From the IMG/VR virus record IMGVR_UViG_2703718849_000001, positions 1-6,274 of that record: 6,274 nt of DNA, one strand, 5' to 3'. The stretch's first letter is position 1. Each line of letters begins with the position of its first letter. Below the pieces are notes generated by a model, which saw nothing but the letters and a program-made list of their open reading frames with translations, was not told where the DNA came from and searched no databases. The stretch is from a virus (lineage: Duplodnaviria; Heunggongvirae; Uroviricota; Caudoviricetes). Made by a program: the position numbers and the translations under genes. This document shows positions 1 through 6,274 of this stretch, one piece after another.

Positions 1-97
1 ATGGTGTCCCCTGCAGACATCTACTTGAAGCGACAGGGGATTGATTGGAATGGTGTTTTTTAGATGTGAAAAATATTTTACCCGCTATTTTACCCAT
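1..97 (-). CDS. Possible 5' end of an integrase gene (N-terminal fragment running off the left edge)
   Basis: Minus-strand ATG at 97..95 opens a frame (MGKIAGKIFFTSKKHHSNQSPVASSRCLQGTP...) with no stop down to position 1. It overlaps the excisionase stop (92..90) by 8 nt, the usual xis-int arrangement. No clear Shine-Dalgarno; the integrase call is positional inference only. Confidence 0.3.
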   Translation of the reverse strand, partial: MGKIAGKIFFTSKKHHSNQSPVASSRCLQGTP

Positions 98-290
98 TGG
101 CGCGGCTTAAGAGCTTATTTTTGAATTCACAATGGTCACGATATAACCATCTTGCTCGCCCGTGGATAACTTTGGCTTTAGGCAGGTCTCCGGACTTAAT
201 CCGGTCATAGATGAAGGTTTTACCGAAGCCAGTATCGGCCATGATGAATTTCAAATCAACCAGGGAATCAGGCTGTAGTTCGTGTTGCAT
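90..290 (-). CDS. xis: AlpA-family excisionase / prophage DNA-binding regulator (66 aa)
   Basis: ATG at 290..288 with GGAG about 9 nt upstream, TAA at 92..90. The pattern ...LKFIMADTGFGKTFIYDRIKSGDLP...RWLYRD... fits the AlpA/Xis helix-turn-helix family signature as I recall it (TG-x5-IY ... LP ... W). Sits at the distal end of the leftward operon. Confidence 0.7.
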   Translation of the reverse strand: MQHELQPDSLVDLKFIMADTGFGKTFIYDRIKSGDLPKAKVIHGRARWLYRDHCEFKNKLLSRANG

Positions 291-615: not shown

Positions 616-918
616 TTAGCCATGGTTAACCTCCTGCGGAGTAGCCTTTACAAGCACTGGTGTAAATCCATCTTCATTAAGGTTATGAATATAGACTTCC
701 GTTCTCCTGCGCTCTTCAGCGTTTAATATGGTTTCTGGATCATAAACCCATACTTTCATTCGACTATTCCATGAAGAAATCGCTTCAGATTTAGTTCGTT
801 TTTCTGGTCCTTGGGCACCACATTTGCATGACACATAGCGCATTTTCCCTCTGATACTGAATGAGTATCCGATGTTAAGCACAGTGGAACCACAGAATGG
901 GCAGCGATATAGATTCAT
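616..918 (-). CDS. lar: Lar-family restriction-alleviation protein (zinc ribbon), 100 aa
   Basis: ATG at 918..916 with AAGGTGG about 8 nt upstream, overlapping the upstream gene's TGA (ATGA). N-terminal CPFCG ... CKCGA two-CxxC motif and ISSWNSR match the Lar family as I recall it. Confidence 0.65.
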   Translation of the reverse strand: MNLYRCPFCGSTVLNIGYSFSIRGKMRYVSCKCGAQGPEKRTKSEAISSWNSRMKVWVYDPETILNAEERRRTEVYIHNLNEDGFTPVLVKATPQEVNHG

Positions 919-1511
919 AAATCATCCACCTTAGGCGCAGCTGAGACAGCAACATTCCAGAACTCAGAAAACATATTGTATGCACCAGATAGATTGGAAG
1001 TGGCATACCCTCCAAGCTCACTTCTAATCTGAACGGCTCTCATCATTTCCGGGGTTAACTCCTTCGGCACCATAACCCAACCATCCGGAATTACCGGAGA
1101 GTTGCCGGGTTCTTTAATGTGCAAGCGAGGCTCACCATCTTTTGGCTCAGGCCACTGGCGCTCCATGTTGATCTTCAATTTATCTTCCATAGCAGCGGTA
1201 ATTTCAGCATCGCTGATGCAAGCACGGCGCTGTGCATCCCACAACAGAAACTGCATATCAGCCCACTCGCTAAGATCGTCTGGTTCGGCTGCGGCTTCCA
1301 GTGCCTCTTTTGAGAGATGTTTCAGCGGACCAATGGGGCCAACGCAGCCAAATGTGGAGTCAGACCATTTGGCATGCTCGTGGCGAATCTGTTCGCGTTC
1401 CAGTGATGCCAGTGCAATCCGTGCCAGTTCCATTTGTTCGCCACGGGTAAGCCCGTTATCAAGCGGATTTTTAATGAATAATTCGATACGTTCTTTGGTA
1501 ATAGTGGTCAT
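915..1511 (-). CDS. Hypothetical phage protein (198 aa), acidic
   Basis: ATG at 1511..1509 with AAGGTGA SD at 9-nt spacing; long uninterrupted ORF; stop overlaps the lar start. No family recognised. Confidence 0.75.
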   Translation of the reverse strand: MTTITKERIELFIKNPLDNGLTRGEQMELARIALASLEREQIRHEHAKWSDSTFGCVGPIGPLKHLSKEALEAAAEPDDLSEWADMQFLLWDAQRRACISDAEITAAMEDKLKINMERQWPEPKDGEPRLHIKEPGNSPVIPDGWVMVPKELTPEMMRAVQIRSELGGYATSNLSGAYNMFSEFWNVAVSAAPKVDDL

Positions 1512-1513
1512 AG

Positions 1514-1705
1514 CTATTTCACCTTAATCTCAACATTTCGCAGCTTTAGCTCTACTGGCAGGTCTGACTTTCCTGTTAATGCTAATGCGAGATTTTCTGG
1601 GGTAATGAGAGCAGTTATTGCTTTCCCCATTGCCAGACGAATAATTATTCGTATTTCGCGATCGTCACATGCTCCTGGTAGAACGATTGATATTTGTCCG
1701 TCCAT
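1514..1705 (-). CDS. Hypothetical small protein (63 aa)
   Basis: ATG at 1705..1703 preceded by AGGAG (6-nt spacing) inside the end of the upstream gene; 1 nt separates the upstream TGA from this ATG, and its own TAG is 2 nt from the next ATG. Confidence 0.6.
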   Translation of the reverse strand: MDGQISIVLPGACDDREIRIIIRLAMGKAITALITPENLALALTGKSDLPVELKLRNVEIKVK

Positions 1706-1706
1706 C

Positions 1707-2114
1707 TCACTCTCCTTTGATGCGAATGCCTGCGGCGCGGATTGCAGCGATGACTTCAGAAACTTTGTATGCCATTACCGTTTGGTAATCATCGTGAAAA
1801 TCTGTTCGATGAAGCATGCTGCTACGTTCCGGGAGCGATATTTCCCGCGCTTCCAGTTCTGCAATGCGCTTTTTTGCTGCTTCCAGTTCATCCAGTAATT
1901 CCAGTACGGTAGCCGGATTAGCCTTGGCAACAAAATCCCGGACTGGCTTACAATCAATCTCCGCAATGGGTTGATACGATGTGTAGCCATGCTGTCTTGT
2001 ATAACTACCGTGACGAATAACAAAAAAATCACCATTTATTTTTTTAGCCTGCCACTTATCTTCACCGGCTTTCTCTGCCGCTTCACGCAGTGCCTGATAG
2101 TCAATCTTGTTCAT
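1707..2114 (-). CDS. Ead/Ea22-like family protein (135 aa)
   Basis: ATG at 2114..2112 with GGTGA SD. Central coiled-coil segment ATVLELLDELEAAKKRIAELEAR resembles the ead/Ea22-like proteins of lambdoid early-left regions (recollection). Confidence 0.7.
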   Translation of the reverse strand: MNKIDYQALREAAEKAGEDKWQAKKINGDFFVIRHGSYTRQHGYTSYQPIAEIDCKPVRDFVAKANPATVLELLDELEAAKKRIAELEAREISLPERSSMLHRTDFHDDYQTVMAYKVSEVIAAIRAAGIRIKGE

Positions 2115-2115
2115 G

Positions 2116-2415
2116 TCACATCACCCTGAATCCGTTGCATTTACGTAAGAAATCGCAGATATAGCCCTTCATTTTTTCATGACAATCTCGATCATTCCCA
2201 TTGCACCAACCATCAGGTGGAGTCCAGTTTTCTATCAGAGCAGCCATTTTCTTTGCTTTCGCCGGAGTAGCTGTTGCGGTATCGCAGTAATGACGAGTGT
2301 CAACCAACGCATCCATACCATCGATATCAAGTACGCAAAACCATGTGTGATTCGGAATTCCTACAGGTGGTATTTGTTGCCCACGTCGACGTTTATCAAT
2401 AAGATATACACTCAC
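2116..2415 (-). CDS. Hypothetical Cys-rich protein (99 aa from GTG)
   Basis: The ORF-track frame 2116..2436 begins with GTG at 2436; a second in-frame GTG at 2415..2413 is preceded by a perfect AGGAGG (2427..2422) with 6-nt spacing and overlaps the TGA of the upstream 55-aa ORF (GTGA). C-terminal C-x7-C-x9-C-x6-C spacing. Confidence 0.6.
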
Positions 2416-2579
2416 TGCTTGCCTCCTTTGCGCCACATCGCATTCAGATATTTGTTTTGATTTACTGACGGAAAAGAATTTCTCTTAAGCAATTCCTCTC
2501 TCGATGGCATTGGCTTTACGCGTTGGCGAATAATCATTTCTGCCGGAAGAATGCCGGGGTTGTATGCAAGTCCTCTCAT
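2412..2579 (-). CDS. Small hypothetical protein (55 aa), below the ORF-track cutoff
   Basis: Hand translation gives [58 protein letters not shown] at 2579..2577 overlaps the TGA of the upstream gene (ATGA) and has GGAG 6 nt upstream; its own TGA overlaps the downstream GTG start. It fills an otherwise empty 160-nt gap exactly. Confidence 0.5.
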
Positions 2580-2866
2580 GATTTACTCTCCACGAACTGG
2601 TCAATAGCCATGCTAAGTGACATACCTAAAGTCTCGATATGCTGCTGAATATCCTGTAGCGTCTGCGCCTGAGATAACAGGATTTCACGGTTGCATAACT
2701 CTTTAACCAGATGCTCAAACTTGCTGTAATAACCGATACGGCTTAGTGTTTCTTTCCCTGCATTCTCGCCTTCTTTGATAATTCCTCTTTCGCTAAGAAT
2801 CAGATCGTGTTTTGTTCCGGTAATAACGTATTTTCCGAGGTCGATGTTTAGCTTCATTGTTTTCAT
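2576..2866 (-). CDS. Hypothetical protein (96 aa)
   Basis: The 146-aa track ORF starts at TTG inside the upstream gene. The ATG at 2866..2864 ([14 protein letters not shown]...) lies 10 nt past the upstream TGA with GAGGA SD at 7-nt spacing, so the gene is trimmed to 2576..2866. Confidence 0.65.
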
Positions 2867-2876
2867 TGTTAATTCC

Positions 2877-3170
2877 TCAGTCATTACTGATAGCGCCATA
2901 GCGTGAGCGGTAATTACGCAGGCGCGGGTCGATTTCAGGGAAGTGGGTATATGTGGCTTTGCGGAATGGTCGGATTGATGTCTGGTAAATTCGCTCTCGT
3001 TCTTCTTTCTCTGCAAGCCATATGCAGTGGCGAAACTCCTTTTCCTCTTTCGTTTCCTGCGGTAGAGACATTATTCGATCGTAGTTTTTTCTGAATTTAT
3101 CCAGCACCTCCGATACGGAATTGCCGGAACAGCGGCGCGCGTCATCCGCACCATACAGAGGCGCTGGCAT
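2877..3170 (-). CDS. Hypothetical protein (97 aa), basic
   Basis: ATG at 3170..3168 with AAGGA SD about 8 nt upstream; TGA at 2879..2877. No family recognised. Confidence 0.65.
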   Translation of the reverse strand: MPAPLYGADDARRCSGNSVSEVLDKFRKNYDRIMSLPQETKEEKEFRHCIWLAEKEERERIYQTSIRPFRKATYTHFPEIDPRLRNYRSRYGAISND

Positions 3171-3193
3171 AATTAAATCCTTATTTTTCTAAA

Positions 3194-3577
3194 TCAGAAT
3201 GGGATGGAATCGTCGTATACAGGAGTGTTCTGCTGGTTACTACTTTGCTGCTGCGGGCCATTTCCTGAAGCTGCAAATCCAATCTTTGCATTCAGTAATT
3301 CAAGAGTGATTGATTGACAATTTTGCCCCTGATAAACATCAACCCTGATGTTTTCTCCGGTAATTTCCACAATGCCACCTTCAACAAGAACACTACGGTA
3401 GTAATCCGCTTGCGCTCCCGGCTTGGCAAATACAACGGCGCTGTAGTTTGTCCATTCTTTCTTTTTTGTCTGGCGATCGTAATGCTGAACTCCAGCACGG
3501 ATGTTGAATCCGATATTTTCCCCGGCCTGAAACTCTCTTGCGGGCTTGTTTAGTCTTACAGTAATCGAATGTGCCAT
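3194..3577 (-). CDS. ssb: Phage SSB-like single-stranded DNA-binding protein (127 aa) with acidic C-terminal tip
   Basis: C-terminus ...NTPVYDDSIPF matches the conserved SSB tail (E. coli SSB ends DDDIPF), preceded by a Gln/Ser-rich linker. The ATG at 3577..3575 (MAHSITV...) overlaps the Erf TAA (TAATG); the track's 157-aa version is an out-of-frame upstream extension. Confidence 0.75.
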   Translation of the reverse strand: MAHSITVRLNKPAREFQAGENIGFNIRAGVQHYDRQTKKKEWTNYSAVVFAKPGAQADYYRSVLVEGGIVEITGENIRVDVYQGQNCQSITLELLNAKIGFAASGNGPQQQSSNQQNTPVYDDSIPF

Positions 3578-4182
3578 TAAGCAGCAGCTCCTTCTAATTC
3601 GTCTCGTCTGATGTTGTAAACGTCCTGCGCTTTGTGCTGCTCCGGTGTGCCTTCGAGCATCTTCCACGCTTTGGCGAACGCCTGTTTAAGCTCTTCTACG
3701 GTGTTTTTCTGCATTGCTGCGTCAGTGAATGCTTTTAGAACCTGTTCAGGTGTAGGTAATGGTTTTGATTGCTTTGCTGCTGCGTTCTGCTGATGTTTAT
3801 GCTCGTCGGTATCTGCATCTTTCGCATCATCAATGCCGAATAAACCATTGAGGCAATACTTGCGTGCATAAGAGCTTGTAGCTCCCGTAACTTGTGCAGA
3901 ATCCATTCCTTTCTTGCTTTCTTCCTCTCGTGCAAGAGCGGTTGCTTTATGACTGTTTTCGCCATCAGTAATAGTTGCCGTTGCTTTCACGTAATACCGA
4001 TCACCAATCAACACAACTTCATCGCTGATTGATAAAAACAGGCCATTCAGTAACGGCTTAACACCCTCAAGAATGTCTTCGCAGCTTCTGTATTTATATT
4101 TGCCGAATGAGTTGTATTGATTCTTTGGCGCGTTCAGATTCTCCTGAATAGCTGCCAGCCTTGCGTAAAATTCTTTGCTCAT
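3577..4182 (-). CDS. erf: Erf-family single-strand annealing recombinase (201 aa)
   Basis: From the ATG at 4182..4180 the protein begins MSKEFYARLAAIQENLNAPKNQYNSFGKYKYRSCEDILEGVKPLL..., which matches my recollection of P22 Erf. The track's start is a TTG at 4212, 10 codons upstream. TAA overlaps the ssb start. Confidence 0.8.
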   Translation of the reverse strand: MSKEFYARLAAIQENLNAPKNQYNSFGKYKYRSCEDILEGVKPLLNGLFLSISDEVVLIGDRYYVKATATITDGENSHKATALAREEESKKGMDSAQVTGATSSYARKYCLNGLFGIDDAKDADTDEHKHQQNAAAKQSKPLPTPEQVLKAFTDAAMQKNTVEELKQAFAKAWKMLEGTPEQHKAQDVYNIRRDELEGAAA

Positions 4183-4283
4183 ATGTTTGTTCTCAGAATG
4201 GACATTCCCCAAGGAAATAACGCTGATTTAATACTTCGACTCGGGACAAATTAAGGCATACCCGCATTCCTTCGCGGTCGCCA

Positions 4284-4442
4284 TTATGGCGATGCCAGAG
4301 AGCTTTCTGCGTGTACATGCGTCTCTGTAACTTGCTCTCCTTCACTGTGGTTGCAAGTGACATGAATATCTCCTTCGTTACCGATTAATTCTTTCATCTG
4401 ACGAATGAATTCTTCGTCTGACCAGTTATCTGTAAAACTCAT
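4284..4442 (-). CDS. Small acidic hypothetical peptide (52 aa) between kil and erf
   Basis: Hand translation gives MSFTDNWSDEEFIRQMKELIGNEGDIHVTCNHSEGEQVTETHVHAESSLASP. ATG at 4442..4440 overlaps the kil TGA (ATGA); TAA at 4286..4284. No SD beyond the coupling; function unknown. Confidence 0.4.
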   Translation of the reverse strand: MSFTDNWSDEEFIRQMKELIGNEGDIHVTCNHSEGEQVTETHVHAESSLASP

Positions 4443-4591
4443 TTCCTGCGATACCACGGAAGGTTGATAGCTGATTTCATCGCTTTATTTGCTTCAAGCC
4501 ACATTTTTGAATCACCAATAAATCTGGCTATTACTGCTTTGTTCTGTGCAGCACGAAGCATCTGGTGATTGATGGCTATTTCATTGCGCAT
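4439..4591 (-). CDS. kil: Kil-like host cell-division inhibitor peptide (50 aa)
   Basis: Hand translation gives MRNEIAINHQMLRAAQNKAVIARFIGDSKMWLEANKAMKSAINLPWYRRK. The IA-x-FIGD-x-KM segment and the position directly downstream of, and overlapping, cIII fit lambda Kil as I recall it. GGAGG lies 4 nt upstream of the ATG at 4591. Confidence 0.5.
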   Translation of the reverse strand: MRNEIAINHQMLRAAQNKAVIARFIGDSKMWLEANKAMKSAINLPWYRRK

Positions 4592-4710
4592 AACGCCTCC
4601 AGTTGTTTCTTTGCTGCTCTGATTAATTGTTTAACTCGGCGTGATAATTCAGATTCGTGCGGGTAGAAAGCGGACATGACGCCGCTACCCGCGAGCTGAA
4701 AGTGCATCAT
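4576..4710 (-). CDS. cIII: CIII-like FtsH inhibitor peptide (44 aa)
   Basis: Hand translation gives MMHFQLAGSGVMSAFYPHESELSRRVKQLIRAAKKQLEALCAMK. GGAG lies 6 nt upstream of the ATG at 4710. The N-terminus and the central amphipathic helix ESELSRRVKQLIR align with lambda CIII (MQYAIAG...ESLLERITRKLRD, from memory). Confidence 0.6.
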   Translation of the reverse strand: MMHFQLAGSGVMSAFYPHESELSRRVKQLIRAAKKQLEALCAMK

Positions 4711-4765: not shown

Positions 4766-4785
4766 GGTATGCGGTAAAGCCGCGC

Positions 4786-5154
4786 TCAGGCGGCTTTGAT
4801 AGTCATATCATCTGAATCAAATATTCCTGATGTATCGATATCGGTAATTCTTATTCCTTCACTACCATCCATTGGAGGCCATCCTTCCTGACCATTTCCA
4901 TCATCCCAGTCGAACTCACAAACAACACCATATGCATTTAAGTCTTTCGAAATTGCTATAAGCAGAGCATGTTGCGCCAGCATGATTAATACAGCATTTA
5001 ATACAGCGCCGTGTTTATTGAGTCGGTATTCAGAGTCTGACCAGAAATTATTAATCTGGTGAAGTTTTTCCTCTGTCATTACGTCATGGTCGATTTCAAT
5101 TTCTATTGATGCTTTCCAGTCGTAATCAATGATGTATTTTTTGATGTTTGACAT
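4786..5154 (-). CDS. ea10: Ea10-like early-left protein (122 aa)
   Basis: ATG at 5154..5152 with GAGGA SD at 9-nt spacing; 122 aa, the size and position of lambda Ea10 between ral and cIII. Sequence identity to Ea10 is recollection only. Confidence 0.6.
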   Translation of the reverse strand: MSNIKKYIIDYDWKASIEIEIDHDVMTEEKLHQINNFWSDSEYRLNKHGAVLNAVLIMLAQHALLIAISKDLNAYGVVCEFDWDDGNGQEGWPPMDGSEGIRITDIDTSGIFDSDDMTIKAA

Positions 5155-5660: not shown

Positions 5661-5688
5661 CAAAAATAAAGGCCACCATCAGGCAGCC
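5661..5688 (-). terminator. Rho-independent terminator candidate (minus strand) immediately after ral
   Basis: Minus-strand RNA: GGCUGCC-UGAU-GGUGGCC (7 bp including two G-U wobbles) followed by UUUAUUUUUGG. The ral TGA (5681..5679) sits in the loop. The plus-strand RNA would have C-A mismatches. Confidence 0.5.
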
Positions 5689-5879
5689 TTGTTATTCTGT
5701 TTACCAAGTTCTCTGGCAATCATTGCCGTCGTTCGTATTGCCCATTTATCGACATATTTCCCATCTTCCATTACATGAAACATTTCTTCAGGCTTAACCA
5801 TGCATTCCGATTGCAGCTTGCATCCATTGCATCGCTTGAATTGTCCACACCATTGATTTGTATCAATAGTCGTAGTCAT
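5679..5879 (-). CDS. ral: Restriction-alleviation protein Ral (66 aa)
   Basis: MTTTIDTNQWCGQFKRCNGCKLQSECMVKPEEMFHVMEDGKYVDKWAIRTTAMIARELGKQNNKAA is near-identical to lambda Ral as I recall it, and of the same length. ATG at 5879..5877. Confidence 0.85.
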   Translation of the reverse strand: MTTTIDTNQWCGQFKRCNGCKLQSECMVKPEEMFHVMEDGKYVDKWAIRTTAMIARELGKQNNKAA

Positions 5880-5957: not shown

Positions 5958-6274
5958 TCAAATAAGTGGTTTGCTGCCTAATTTCATTTTCTGGCGACCA
6001 ACACAAGTCACCCCCATTTCACTGCGTGGCTTGCTGTACCATGTGCGCTGATTCTTGCGCTCAATACGTTGCAGGTTGCTTTCAATCTGTTCGTGGTATT
6101 CAGCCAGCACTGTAAGGTCTATCGGATTCAGTGCGCTTTCTACTCGTGATTTCGGTTTGCGATTCAGCGAGAGAATAGGGCGGTTAACTGGTTTTGCGCT
6201 TACCCCAACCAACAGGGGATTTGCTGCTTTCCATTGAGCCTGTTTCTCTGCGCGACGTTCGCGGCGGCGTGTTT
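5958..6274 (-). CDS. N: Antitermination protein N (5' end truncated by the window edge; about 4 codons missing)
   Basis: The minus-strand frame is open from 6272 down to the stop at 5960..5958: TRRRERRAEKQAQWKAANPLLVGVSAKPVNRPILSLNRKPKSRVESALNPIDLTVLAEYHEQIESNLQRIERKNQRTWYSKP...PLI. The arginine-rich motif and most of the sequence match lambda N (MDAQTRRRERRAEKQAQWKAANPLL...); the C-terminal roughly 25 residues diverge. The track's TTG start at 6212 is an artefact. Confidence 0.9.
   Translation of the reverse strand, partial: TRRRERRAEKQAQWKAANPLLVGVSAKPVNRPILSLNRKPKSRVESALNPIDLTVLAEYHEQIESNLQRIERKNQRTWYSKPRSEMGVTCVGRQKMKLGSKPLI

Follow-up and report, generated by a model that had tools for sequence, protein, structure and literature searches.

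The seven minus-strand open reading frames (ORFs) that occupy positions 915-3170 of the window, the whole stretch of 6,274 nucleotides analysed here, are real and co-transcribed genes. Very probably, the region forms the distal part of the early-left (PL) operon, antiterminated by N, of a lambdoid prophage of the P22/Sf6/HK620 type, in which the seven genes would be independently exchangeable cassettes joined by recombination, with joints at domain boundaries in two of them. The gene order is N, ral, cIII, kil, erf, an ssb-like gene, the seven genes, lar, a 55-aa ORF and xis (Table 1). The block is flanked by Erf, SSB-like, Lar and Xis/TorI-like proteins, with Ral, Kil, cIII and N-like proteins encoded further upstream. 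Only one member of the block, Abc2, has an established anti-defence function.

Table 1. The seven genes of the block and their immediate neighbours, in the order of the minus strand.
Feature	Length (aa)	Position	Strand	Principal match	Remarks
erf, ssDNA-annealing recombinase		3577..4182	-	99% identity to HK633 Erf, 74% to P22 Erf	
SSB-like protein	127	3194..3577	-	phrog_44, E 3.2e-24	93% identity to HK633 gp35
abc2, anti-RecBCD protein 2	97	2877..3170	-	PF11043, E 5.6e-63; phrog_656	
DUF5405 gene	96	2576..2866	-	PF17399	Sf6 gp24
DUF2737 gene	55	2412..2579	-	PF10930, E 8.8e-32	pI 11
DUF7739 gene	99	2116..2415	-	PF24881	GTG start overlapping the preceding stop
Ead/Ea22-like chimeric gene	135	1707..2114	-	PF13935, E 6.7e-18	
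HK620p06/HK633 gp30 family gene	63	1514..1705	-	phrog_1222, E 4.4e-38	98% identity to HK633 gp30
DUF550-domain protein	198	915..1511	-	PF04447, E 4.3e-41	
lar, restriction alleviation		616..918	-	TIGR03655, E 3e-16; PF14354	99% identity to Sf6 gp20

An earlier note on this DNA had described seven consecutive, tightly packed minus-strand ORFs, each with its own Shine-Dalgarno (SD) sequence, and our measurements agree with it in these respects. All seven ORFs are present at the sizes it gave, and the spacers range from -4 to +10 nt: +10 nt between abc2 and the 96-aa gene, -4 (an ATGA overlap) between the 96-aa and 55-aa genes, -4 (a GTGA overlap) between the 55-aa and 99-aa genes, +1 on either side of the 135-aa gene, and +2 between the 63-aa and 198-aa genes. 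The stop codon of the 198-aa gene in turn overlaps the lar start (-4, ATGA). A purine-rich SD-like motif is located 6-8 nt upstream of every start (TAAGGA, GAGGA, GGAGAG, AAGGAGG, AGGGTGA, AAGGAG and AAGGTG in gene order, the fifth being weak). The seven genes are probably translationally coupled. They are genes rather than chance ORFs, given that each has a Pfam and/or PHROG match (E 1e-5 to 1e-63) and that near-identical phage counterparts exist. A site scan found nothing terminator-like on the minus strand from 4042 to 586, and nothing promoter-like inside the block, which is therefore a single uninterrupted part of the early-left transcription unit. An Rfam search of the window returned no RNA family, and repeat searches nothing relevant within the block.

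The same note held that these genes are of unknown function and that none except the Ea22-like one matches a family it could name. This is not supported, as six of the seven proteins have Pfam matches above the curated cut-offs. The profile HMM and structure searches that it suggested did find families, but gave no functional assignment for the five genes other than abc2 and the 198-aa gene. Scans of all seven proteins against NCBIfam and against the PADLOC defence-system models gave nothing significant, the sole PADLOC match having an E-value of 0.015.

Judged by its sequence, the first gene is abc2, the last gene of an Erf/SSB/Abc2 recombination module. The protein matches PF11043 (Anti-RecBCD_p2) over its entire length (residues 1-97 on profile positions 1-97; 209.6 bits, cut-off 25), is 93% identical to P22 Abc2 and 99% identical to HK633 gp34, and finds PDB entry 8b1t with an E-value of 2.8e-57. 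The mechanism by which Abc2 hijacks RecBCD has been described, and Pro68 is the site engaged by PpiB (PMC9836394); this proline is kept here. The likeness to P22 Abc2 (PDB 8b1t/8b1u) extends to the same length and to a location downstream of erf in the PL operon. Abc2 is associated with an Erf-type recombinase in the window as well, with erf and the ssb-like gene directly upstream, but there are two differences from P22. P22 abc2 is preceded by Abc1, whereas the gene between erf and abc2 here encodes an SSB-like protein of the HK97 gp40/HK633 gp35 type, with a host-SSB-like C-terminal tail (...DDSIPF); and a DUF5405 gene separates abc2 from the orf56 homologue. No homologue of a phage exonuclease (exo) was found within the window. 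Since abc2 is part of the recombination module, the module boundary had been misdrawn when the block was placed between this module and lar/xis, and we have corrected it by assigning abc2 to the module.

The 55-aa protein matches PF10930 over its full length (109.2 bits, cut-off 25), and is identical to Sf6 gp23 and 77% identical to P22 orf56. The pair abc2-DUF2737 is the sole stable link in the region: Abc2 is encoded upstream of DUF2737 in 69 of 80 viral contigs (the best 80 of at least 594 matches, a sample biased to close relatives), and abc2 is followed by DUF2737 in all six genome loci. Because it is almost always the immediate neighbour, the basic DUF2737 protein would work together with Abc2. 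The DUF5405 gene is an optional cassette between the two. Its product matches PF17399 marginally (25.6 bits, cut-off 21.6), and the predicted model resembles DUF5405 proteins in BFVD (Foldseek, E 3e-8, TM 0.86). The real start of this gene may be the second Met codon, at position 2857, as in most homologues. The label 'replication initiation protein' carried by phrog_154 and by Sf6 gp24 in RefSeq is not supported, as no similarity to a characterised replication initiator was found. DUF2737 stays paired with abc2 even where a cassette is inserted between them. PDB sequence searches with the DUF5405 and DUF2737 proteins returned nothing meaningful, and we found no functional study of DUF2737, DUF5405, DUF7739 or EaA in the literature.

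The last gene of the block encodes a predicted DUF550 (MazZ-2-type, MazG/HisE-fold) (d)NTP pyrophosphohydrolase core with intact catalytic residues. This core (residues 42-137 on positions 1-96 of the 97-position PF04447 profile; 139.5 bits, cut-off 23) is flanked by an EaA-type N-terminal module (residues 1-37) and a C-terminal module common with Sf6 gp21 (residues 136-198). The top PDB sequence match is MazZ (7ody), in a weak alignment (E 0.51). Two sets of residues, E69/E72/E82/D85 and K111/N115/R118/W120, are near-invariant in ~140 family representatives. The four acidic residues and R118 align to the metal ligands E35/E38/E50/D53 and the transition-state arginine R83 of MazZ, and the second set aligns to MazZ pocket residues. 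In Acinetobacter phage SH-Ab 15497, the DUF550 protein acts as a dGTP/dATP pyrophosphohydrolase (PMC12884076, PMC8342488). Our protein shares with it and with S-2L MazZ (7ody) the PF04447 family, all four acidic residues that bind the metal and the catalytic arginine, but differs in that unrelated modules adjoin its core at both the N- and the C-terminal side and that purZ and datZ are not in view: neither gene of this Z-cluster, which defines the role of MazZ, was found in the 6.3-kb window or in the regions of Sf6, HK633 and P22 that we examined. As the window shows no PurZ/DatZ partner, the role that DUF550 plays in Z-genomes is not applicable here. To our knowledge, lambdoid phages do not carry Z-DNA. 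Base binding reportedly differs between MazZ-2/DUF550 enzymes and MazZ-1, so sequence does not settle the substrate. The enzyme would hydrolyse dGTP/dATP or a (p)ppGpp-like guanine nucleotide to the monophosphate and PPi early in infection, and would thereby alter the nucleotide pools or dampen a stress or defence response of the host.

P22 EaA is related to the same protein, with 55% identity between residues 1-182 of the latter and residues 1-214 of EaA. It lies in the same abc2-to-xis slot, and the abc2-orf56 (DUF2737) pair is present in P22 as well, but EaA has 317 residues and a different C-terminal half. None of the window proteins matches P22 eaC, eaE, eaF or eaI, and the matches to eaD and eaG are only marginal (E 0.006-0.04). 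Among lambdoid prophages without Z-DNA synthesis, DUF550 pyrophosphohydrolases are widespread.

The 99-aa protein matches PF24881 with 64.8 bits (cut-off 27), and its GTG start is supported by the full-length homologues, all of which begin there. A PDB sequence search with this protein gave nothing meaningful; the 63-aa protein had no match in Pfam, NCBIfam, PADLOC or the PDB. The DUF5405, DUF7739 and 63-aa proteins are small and non-enzymatic-looking, and each would most likely bind a host or phage protein. Could they be counter-defence factors? The earlier note took the block for a slot of host-takeover or anti-defence genes. This is borne out by Abc2, which is truly a counter-defence and host-takeover factor; for the five genes that have no functional assignment, such a role is suggested by their position. 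We consider it possible, but rather doubtful, that the block is an island whose uncharacterised members inhibit restriction-modification, abortive infection or nucleotide-signalling systems. The counter-defence genes abc2 and lar lie on either side, ral is in the same operon, the gene content is hypervariable, and the accessory DNA around abc2 has already been searched for counter-defence genes (bioRxiv 10.1101/2023.04.06.535777). The predicted model of DUF7739 weakly resembles the inhibitor/immunity proteins DMP12 and CdiI, but the protein is not acidic (net charge ~+2) and so, unlike DMP12, does not mimic DNA. A phage MazG-like enzyme, Atd1 of Pectobacterium phage PcCB7V, is a proven anti-TIR factor: it depletes (p)ppGpp and counters TIR defences (bioRxiv 10.1101/2022.06.09.495361). 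Like our DUF550 protein, Atd1 is a small phage-encoded all-alpha NTP pyrophosphohydrolase found among accessory and counter-defence genes, but it probably belongs to another family, since PF04447 is the one Pfam family that the 198-aa protein matches at E <= 0.1. Against an anti-defence island, family (Pfam, PHROG, NCBIfam and PADLOC), PDB and fold searches gave no clear match, in sequence or structure, of the five uncharacterised proteins to a characterised anti-defence protein, and the equivalent lambda exo-xis genes tune lysis-lysogeny instead.

Two questions arise about these very common prophage genes, namely the substrate of lambdoid DUF550 and the cooperation of DUF2737 with Abc2. We tentatively propose, though we would not expect it, that at least one of the following is true: DUF2737 is a hitherto unrecognised third component of the Abc2-Erf RecBCD-hijacking module, or DUF550 is a counter-defence enzyme that depletes nucleotide pools or alarmones. 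The former proposal is based on the fact that DUF2737 is kept next to abc2 in nearly all contexts that we examined, even though all other junctions of the region are shuffled.

The 135-aa protein is Ea22-like, as the earlier note had recognised, but it resembles lambda Ea22 only in part. Residues 3-101 match positions 2-90 of the 139-position PF13935 profile (66 bits, cut-off 27). Lambda Ea22, a pro-lysogenic tetramer encoded in the exo-xis region, has the PF13935 N-terminal region and coiled coil in common with our protein, whereas its NMR-solved C-terminal dimeric domain is absent here and is replaced by an HK633 gp31-type C-terminus; a PDB sequence search with the 135-aa protein (E <= 10) did not retrieve that domain of lambda Ea22. 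Identity to HK633 gp31 is 86% over the last 66 residues, and identity to Sf6 gp21 is 42% over the N-terminal part. The protein is predicted to be a coiled-coil oligomer and, by analogy with lambda Ea22, may bias the lysis-lysogeny decision, although the lambda phenotype may not transfer to a protein that does not have the lambda C-terminal domain. Ea22 of lambda and of Stx phages favours lysogeny (PMC7093339, PMC10834534), and other exo-xis genes affect induction (PMC7093339, PMC3824215, PMC10834534). Together with the equivalent position between the recombination genes and xis, the presence of this Ead/Ea22-family member raises the question of whether all genes of the block except abc2 are developmental modulators that tune lysogenization and induction rather than act on host defences. 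We regard this as unlikely, given that the lambda exo-xis ORFs orf60a, orf61, orf63 and ea8.5 are all absent and that only the N-terminal/coiled-coil part of Ea22 is held in common.

Our preferred explanation, exchangeable cassettes within an early-left operon, is consistent with the varied composition of the block in its relatives. Among the best 80 of at least 594 matching viral contigs, the genes that follow DUF2737 are combined in dozens of ways, in agreement with the hypervariable accessory slot described in the earlier note. There are ~49 gene orders in these 80 contigs, and none of them has the exact seven-gene set. So many combinations indicate a cassette mosaic and not one system. Mosaic joints in the DNA are located at ~1886 and ~2068 inside the 135-aa gene, and at ~1106 and ~1400 inside the 198-aa gene. 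A single co-adapted system of seven proteins would explain why stop and start codons overlap or lie 1-10 nt apart all through the block, as well as the translational coupling and the shared transcription unit, but it is very improbable and largely refuted by the ~49 combinations without the exact set (best 80 of at least 594 contigs), by DUF5405 being a clean presence/absence cassette, by the joints within two genes, by the whole block being found in no complete E. coli genome (best coverage, 88%) and no phage record (best coverage, 57%), and by equally tight packing that runs into lar and recurs upstream of the block, where the stop and start codons of erf and the ssb-like gene overlap. Tight packing here is operon architecture and does not mark a functional unit.

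As a discovery the block carries little weight, its members being ordinary early genes already catalogued for prophages of the P22/Sf6/HK620 type. Annotated Sf6 or HK633 proteins match five of the seven products at 98-100% identity, 2437 of 5426 complete E. coli genomes (~45%) contain parts of the block, and the chimeras recur in an E. coli prophage. The abc2, DUF5405, DUF2737, DUF7739 and lar products are 96-100% identical to Sf6 gp25-gp22 and gp20. In contrast to Sf6, HK633 and HK620 (gp29-gp31), the window combines Sf6-, HK633- and P22 EaA-like segments in its chimeric 135-aa and 198-aa genes. Both chimeras are also present in a prophage of E. coli YZ22PE165. Over positions 328-2580 this prophage shares 99.3% identity with our DNA; it lacks only the DUF5405 gene and encodes a 198-aa protein that differs at just a few residues.

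All genes of the window lie on the minus strand and make up the early-left (PL) operon of a lambdoid prophage. The seven ORFs filling 915-3170 are all present with exactly the sizes given in the earlier note, whose observation is confirmed and whose interpretation is partly supported. They are as tightly packed as it described, with spacers of +10, -4, -4, +1, +1 and +2 nt between them and a further overlap (-4 nt) into lar, and each has an SD-like motif at its start, a weak one in the case of the 135-aa gene. We found no minus-strand terminator-like hairpin from 4042 to 586 and no promoter-like site inside the block, so that the seven genes form one transcription unit with erf, the SSB-like gene and lar. 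The GTG start of the 99-aa DUF7739 gene is backed by its full-length homologues, all of which begin at this position. The DUF5405 gene may truly start three codons on, at 2857, which would shorten the protein to 93 aa and lengthen the spacer that follows abc2; this second Met (MKLNI...) is the start in most DUF5405 homologues.

Genes of the window in their order along transcription, with the modules of the DUF550 protein
Feature	Position	Strand	Match
N-like antiterminator	5958-6212	-	
Ral	5679-5879	-	PF11058, E 7.5e-48
DUF2528 protein, cIII, Kil	between Ral and Erf	-	
Erf	3577-4182	-	
SSB-like protein, 127 aa	3194-3577	-	phrog_44, E 3e-24
Abc2, 97 aa	2877-3170	-	PF11043, E 5.6e-63
DUF5405, 96 aa	2576-2866	-	PF17399, marginal (25.6 bits, cut-off 21.6)
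DUF2737, 55 aa	2412-2579	-	Pfam, E 8.8e-32
DUF7739, 99 aa, GTG start	2116-2415	-	Pfam, E 1.1e-17
Ead/Ea22-like, 135 aa	1707-2114	-	Pfam, E 6.7e-18
63-aa protein	1514-1705	-	phrog_1222 only
DUF550, 198 aa	915-1511	-	PF04447 'dATP/dGTP pyrophosphohydrolase' (formerly DUF550), E 4.3e-41, residues 42-137
DUF550 protein, N-module (aa 1-37)	1400-1511	-	HK633 gp29/P22 EaA-like
DUF550 protein, core	1107-1399	-	71% nucleotide identity to P22 eaA
DUF550 protein, C-module (aa 136-198)	915-1106	-	98% identity to Sf6 gp21 C-terminus
Lar	616-918	-	TIGR03655, E 3e-16
55-aa ORF	between Lar and TorI/Xis-like gene	-	
TorI/Xis-like protein	90-290	-	

The seven proteins are less anonymous than had been claimed: the earlier note could name no family except Ea22-like, but six of them exceed curated Pfam cut-offs. 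RefSeq already names the E. coli equivalents 'phage anti-RecBCD protein', 'DUF5405 family protein', 'DUF2737 family protein', 'DUF7739 domain-containing protein', 'ead/Ea22-like family protein' and 'DUF550 domain-containing protein'. In pairwise comparisons, identities of 98-100% link DUF5405, DUF2737 and DUF7739 to Sf6 gp24, gp23 and gp22, respectively (DUF2737 also reaches 77% with P22 orf56); the 63-aa protein shows 98% identity to HK633 gp30, and Abc2 99% to HK633 gp34 and 93% to P22 Abc2. Five of the seven proteins thus have counterparts of 98-100% identity among the annotated Sf6 or HK633 proteins, and the two chimeric ones (135 and 198 aa) recur in a near-identical E. coli prophage.

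At the first 'unknown' gene, the boundary drawn in the earlier note is one gene off. The 97-aa product of this gene matches the chain bound to RecBCD in PDB 8b1t (E 2.8e-57) and keeps Pro68, and it therefore belongs to the recombination module as the characterised protein Abc2. Pro68 engages host PpiB; Abc2 hardly inhibits the RecBCD helicase-nuclease but abolishes the response to Chi, and is thought to redirect RecBCD to loading of the phage recombinase Erf (PMC9836394). The suggested host-takeover or counter-defence role thus holds for Abc2, a true factor of this kind. Biochemistry can also be assigned to the DUF550 protein; the other five are without functional assignment, and nothing beyond position argues for anti-defence in their case.

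PF04447 is named after the DUF550 enzyme that Acinetobacter phage SH-Ab 15497 encodes (PMC12884076, PMC8342488). The sole PDB sequence match of the 198-aa protein is a weak one to MazZ (7ody, E 0.51). In this alignment E69, E72, E82 and D85 correspond to the Mn2+ ligands E35, E38, E50 and D53 of MazZ, and K111, N115, R118 and W120 to K76, N80, R83 and W85 (MazZ numbering checked against the MazZ paper). Across ~140 representatives of 50%-identity clusters from this large family (3502 representatives at E <= 1e-3), all eight residues show little or no variation. On this evidence we regard the DUF550 domain as a probably catalytically competent NTP pyrophosphohydrolase of the MazG/HisE fold, its substrate not being fixed by the sequence. 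No purZ or datZ is in view around the gene. Atd1, a distinct MazG-like enzyme from another phage, targets (p)ppGpp and counteracts TIR-based defences (bioRxiv 10.1101/2022.06.09.495361). Pairwise comparison and a local BLAST map reveal the 198-aa protein as a three-part chimera, the C-module matching the C-terminus of an Ead/Ea22-like protein, Sf6 gp21.

The 135-aa Ead/Ea22-like protein is a chimera too, its joints lying near 1886 and 2068 in the BLAST map. With lambda Ea22, a lysogeny-favouring tetramer (PMC7093339, PMC10834534), it has only the N-terminal/coiled-coil part in common; it gave no PDB match to the C-terminal domain of Ea22. In the DUF5405 model (pLDDT 89), a helical hairpin comes after a sheet of four strands; none of its PDB neighbours is informative, and the fold is shared by many uncharacterised phage proteins, the phages being those of Salmonella, Morganella, Bacillus, Lactobacillus and Cellulophaga. 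We found no support for the label 'replication initiation protein' (phrog_154 and RefSeq). DUF2737 is strongly basic (pI 11, net charge +7.5) and, like the 63-aa protein, has no relatives in the PDB.

Could the seven genes be one co-adapted unit? Their tight spacing might suggest so, but Sf6-like and HK633-like segments alternate along the region. Whole-window megablast matched 582 phage records (best, Sf6 and HK633), each covering about half of the window at most, as is usual for lambdoid mosaics. Of 5426 complete E. coli genomes, 2437 contain parts of the block, with coverage never above 88%. The prophage of E. coli YZ22PE165 (NZ_CP139130.1), integrated next to sbcB, matches 328-2580 at 99.3% identity and 2863-4593 at 95%, and lacks exactly the DUF5405 gene (2581-2862). 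We sampled 80 IMG/VR contigs holding a DUF2737 relative of at least 96% identity, the best 80 of at least 594 matches and biased to close relatives. They show ~49 different gene orders, bearing out the hypervariable slot proposed earlier, and none has the exact seven-gene set; Abc2 is found in 69, an Ead-like gene in 29, DUF7739 and DUF550 in 21 each, DUF5405 in 17, the 63-aa gene in eight and the window's lar in two. Thus, tight spacing is a property of the operon and not a sign of co-adaptation.

One junction stands apart from the shuffling that affects all others in the region. DUF2737 directly follows abc2, with an identical short spacer, in 59 of the 80 contigs, and in nine others an inserted DUF5405 gene separates the two; the order also holds in P22, HK633 and Sf6, and in all six abc2-centred loci from different species (E. 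coli, Escherichia sp., Shimwellia, Intestinirhabdus). Because of the bias of the contig sample, we consider this stable pairing a lead and not a result. What remains of value are two testable hypotheses, both on prophage genes that are very common: one on what the lambdoid DUF550 enzyme acts on and what it does, the other on whether DUF2737 may be functionally linked to Abc2.

Several minor observations concern the genes and their surroundings. DUF5405 acts as a clean presence/absence cassette, the abc2-proximal spacer being the same with or without it. RefSeq/PGAP splits the YZ22PE165 DUF550 ORF (2501-3097 of the sampled locus L005) into a 165-aa CDS and a 'partial' pseudogene; the ORF translates uninterrupted and differs from the window protein by a few residues. 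This single operon includes three distinct anti-nuclease/anti-restriction genes, namely ral, abc2 and lar. Between erf and abc2, where P22 has abc1, the window has the SSB-like gene; its product has no Pfam match and ends in ...DDSIPF, which we take to resemble the C-terminal tail by which host SSB recruits other proteins. Between kil and erf, where P22 has arf, lie two overlapping small minus-strand ORFs (4193-4363 and 4284-4457) without Pfam matches; RefSeq calls their Sf6/HK633 counterparts 'recombinase', which looks like an unsupported propagated annotation. Finally, a 25-nt GC-rich hairpin, AAAAACCGCCATCAGGCGGCTTGGT, occurs three times in the window, including two 76% copies. Those at 337-361 and 5668-5692 overlap minus-strand terminator-like sites (358-339 and 5690-5669), and that at 4775-4799 lies just upstream of another (4762-4743). 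All three lie where modules of the PL operon seem to meet, much as do the 'boundary sequences' of the Sf6 annotation.
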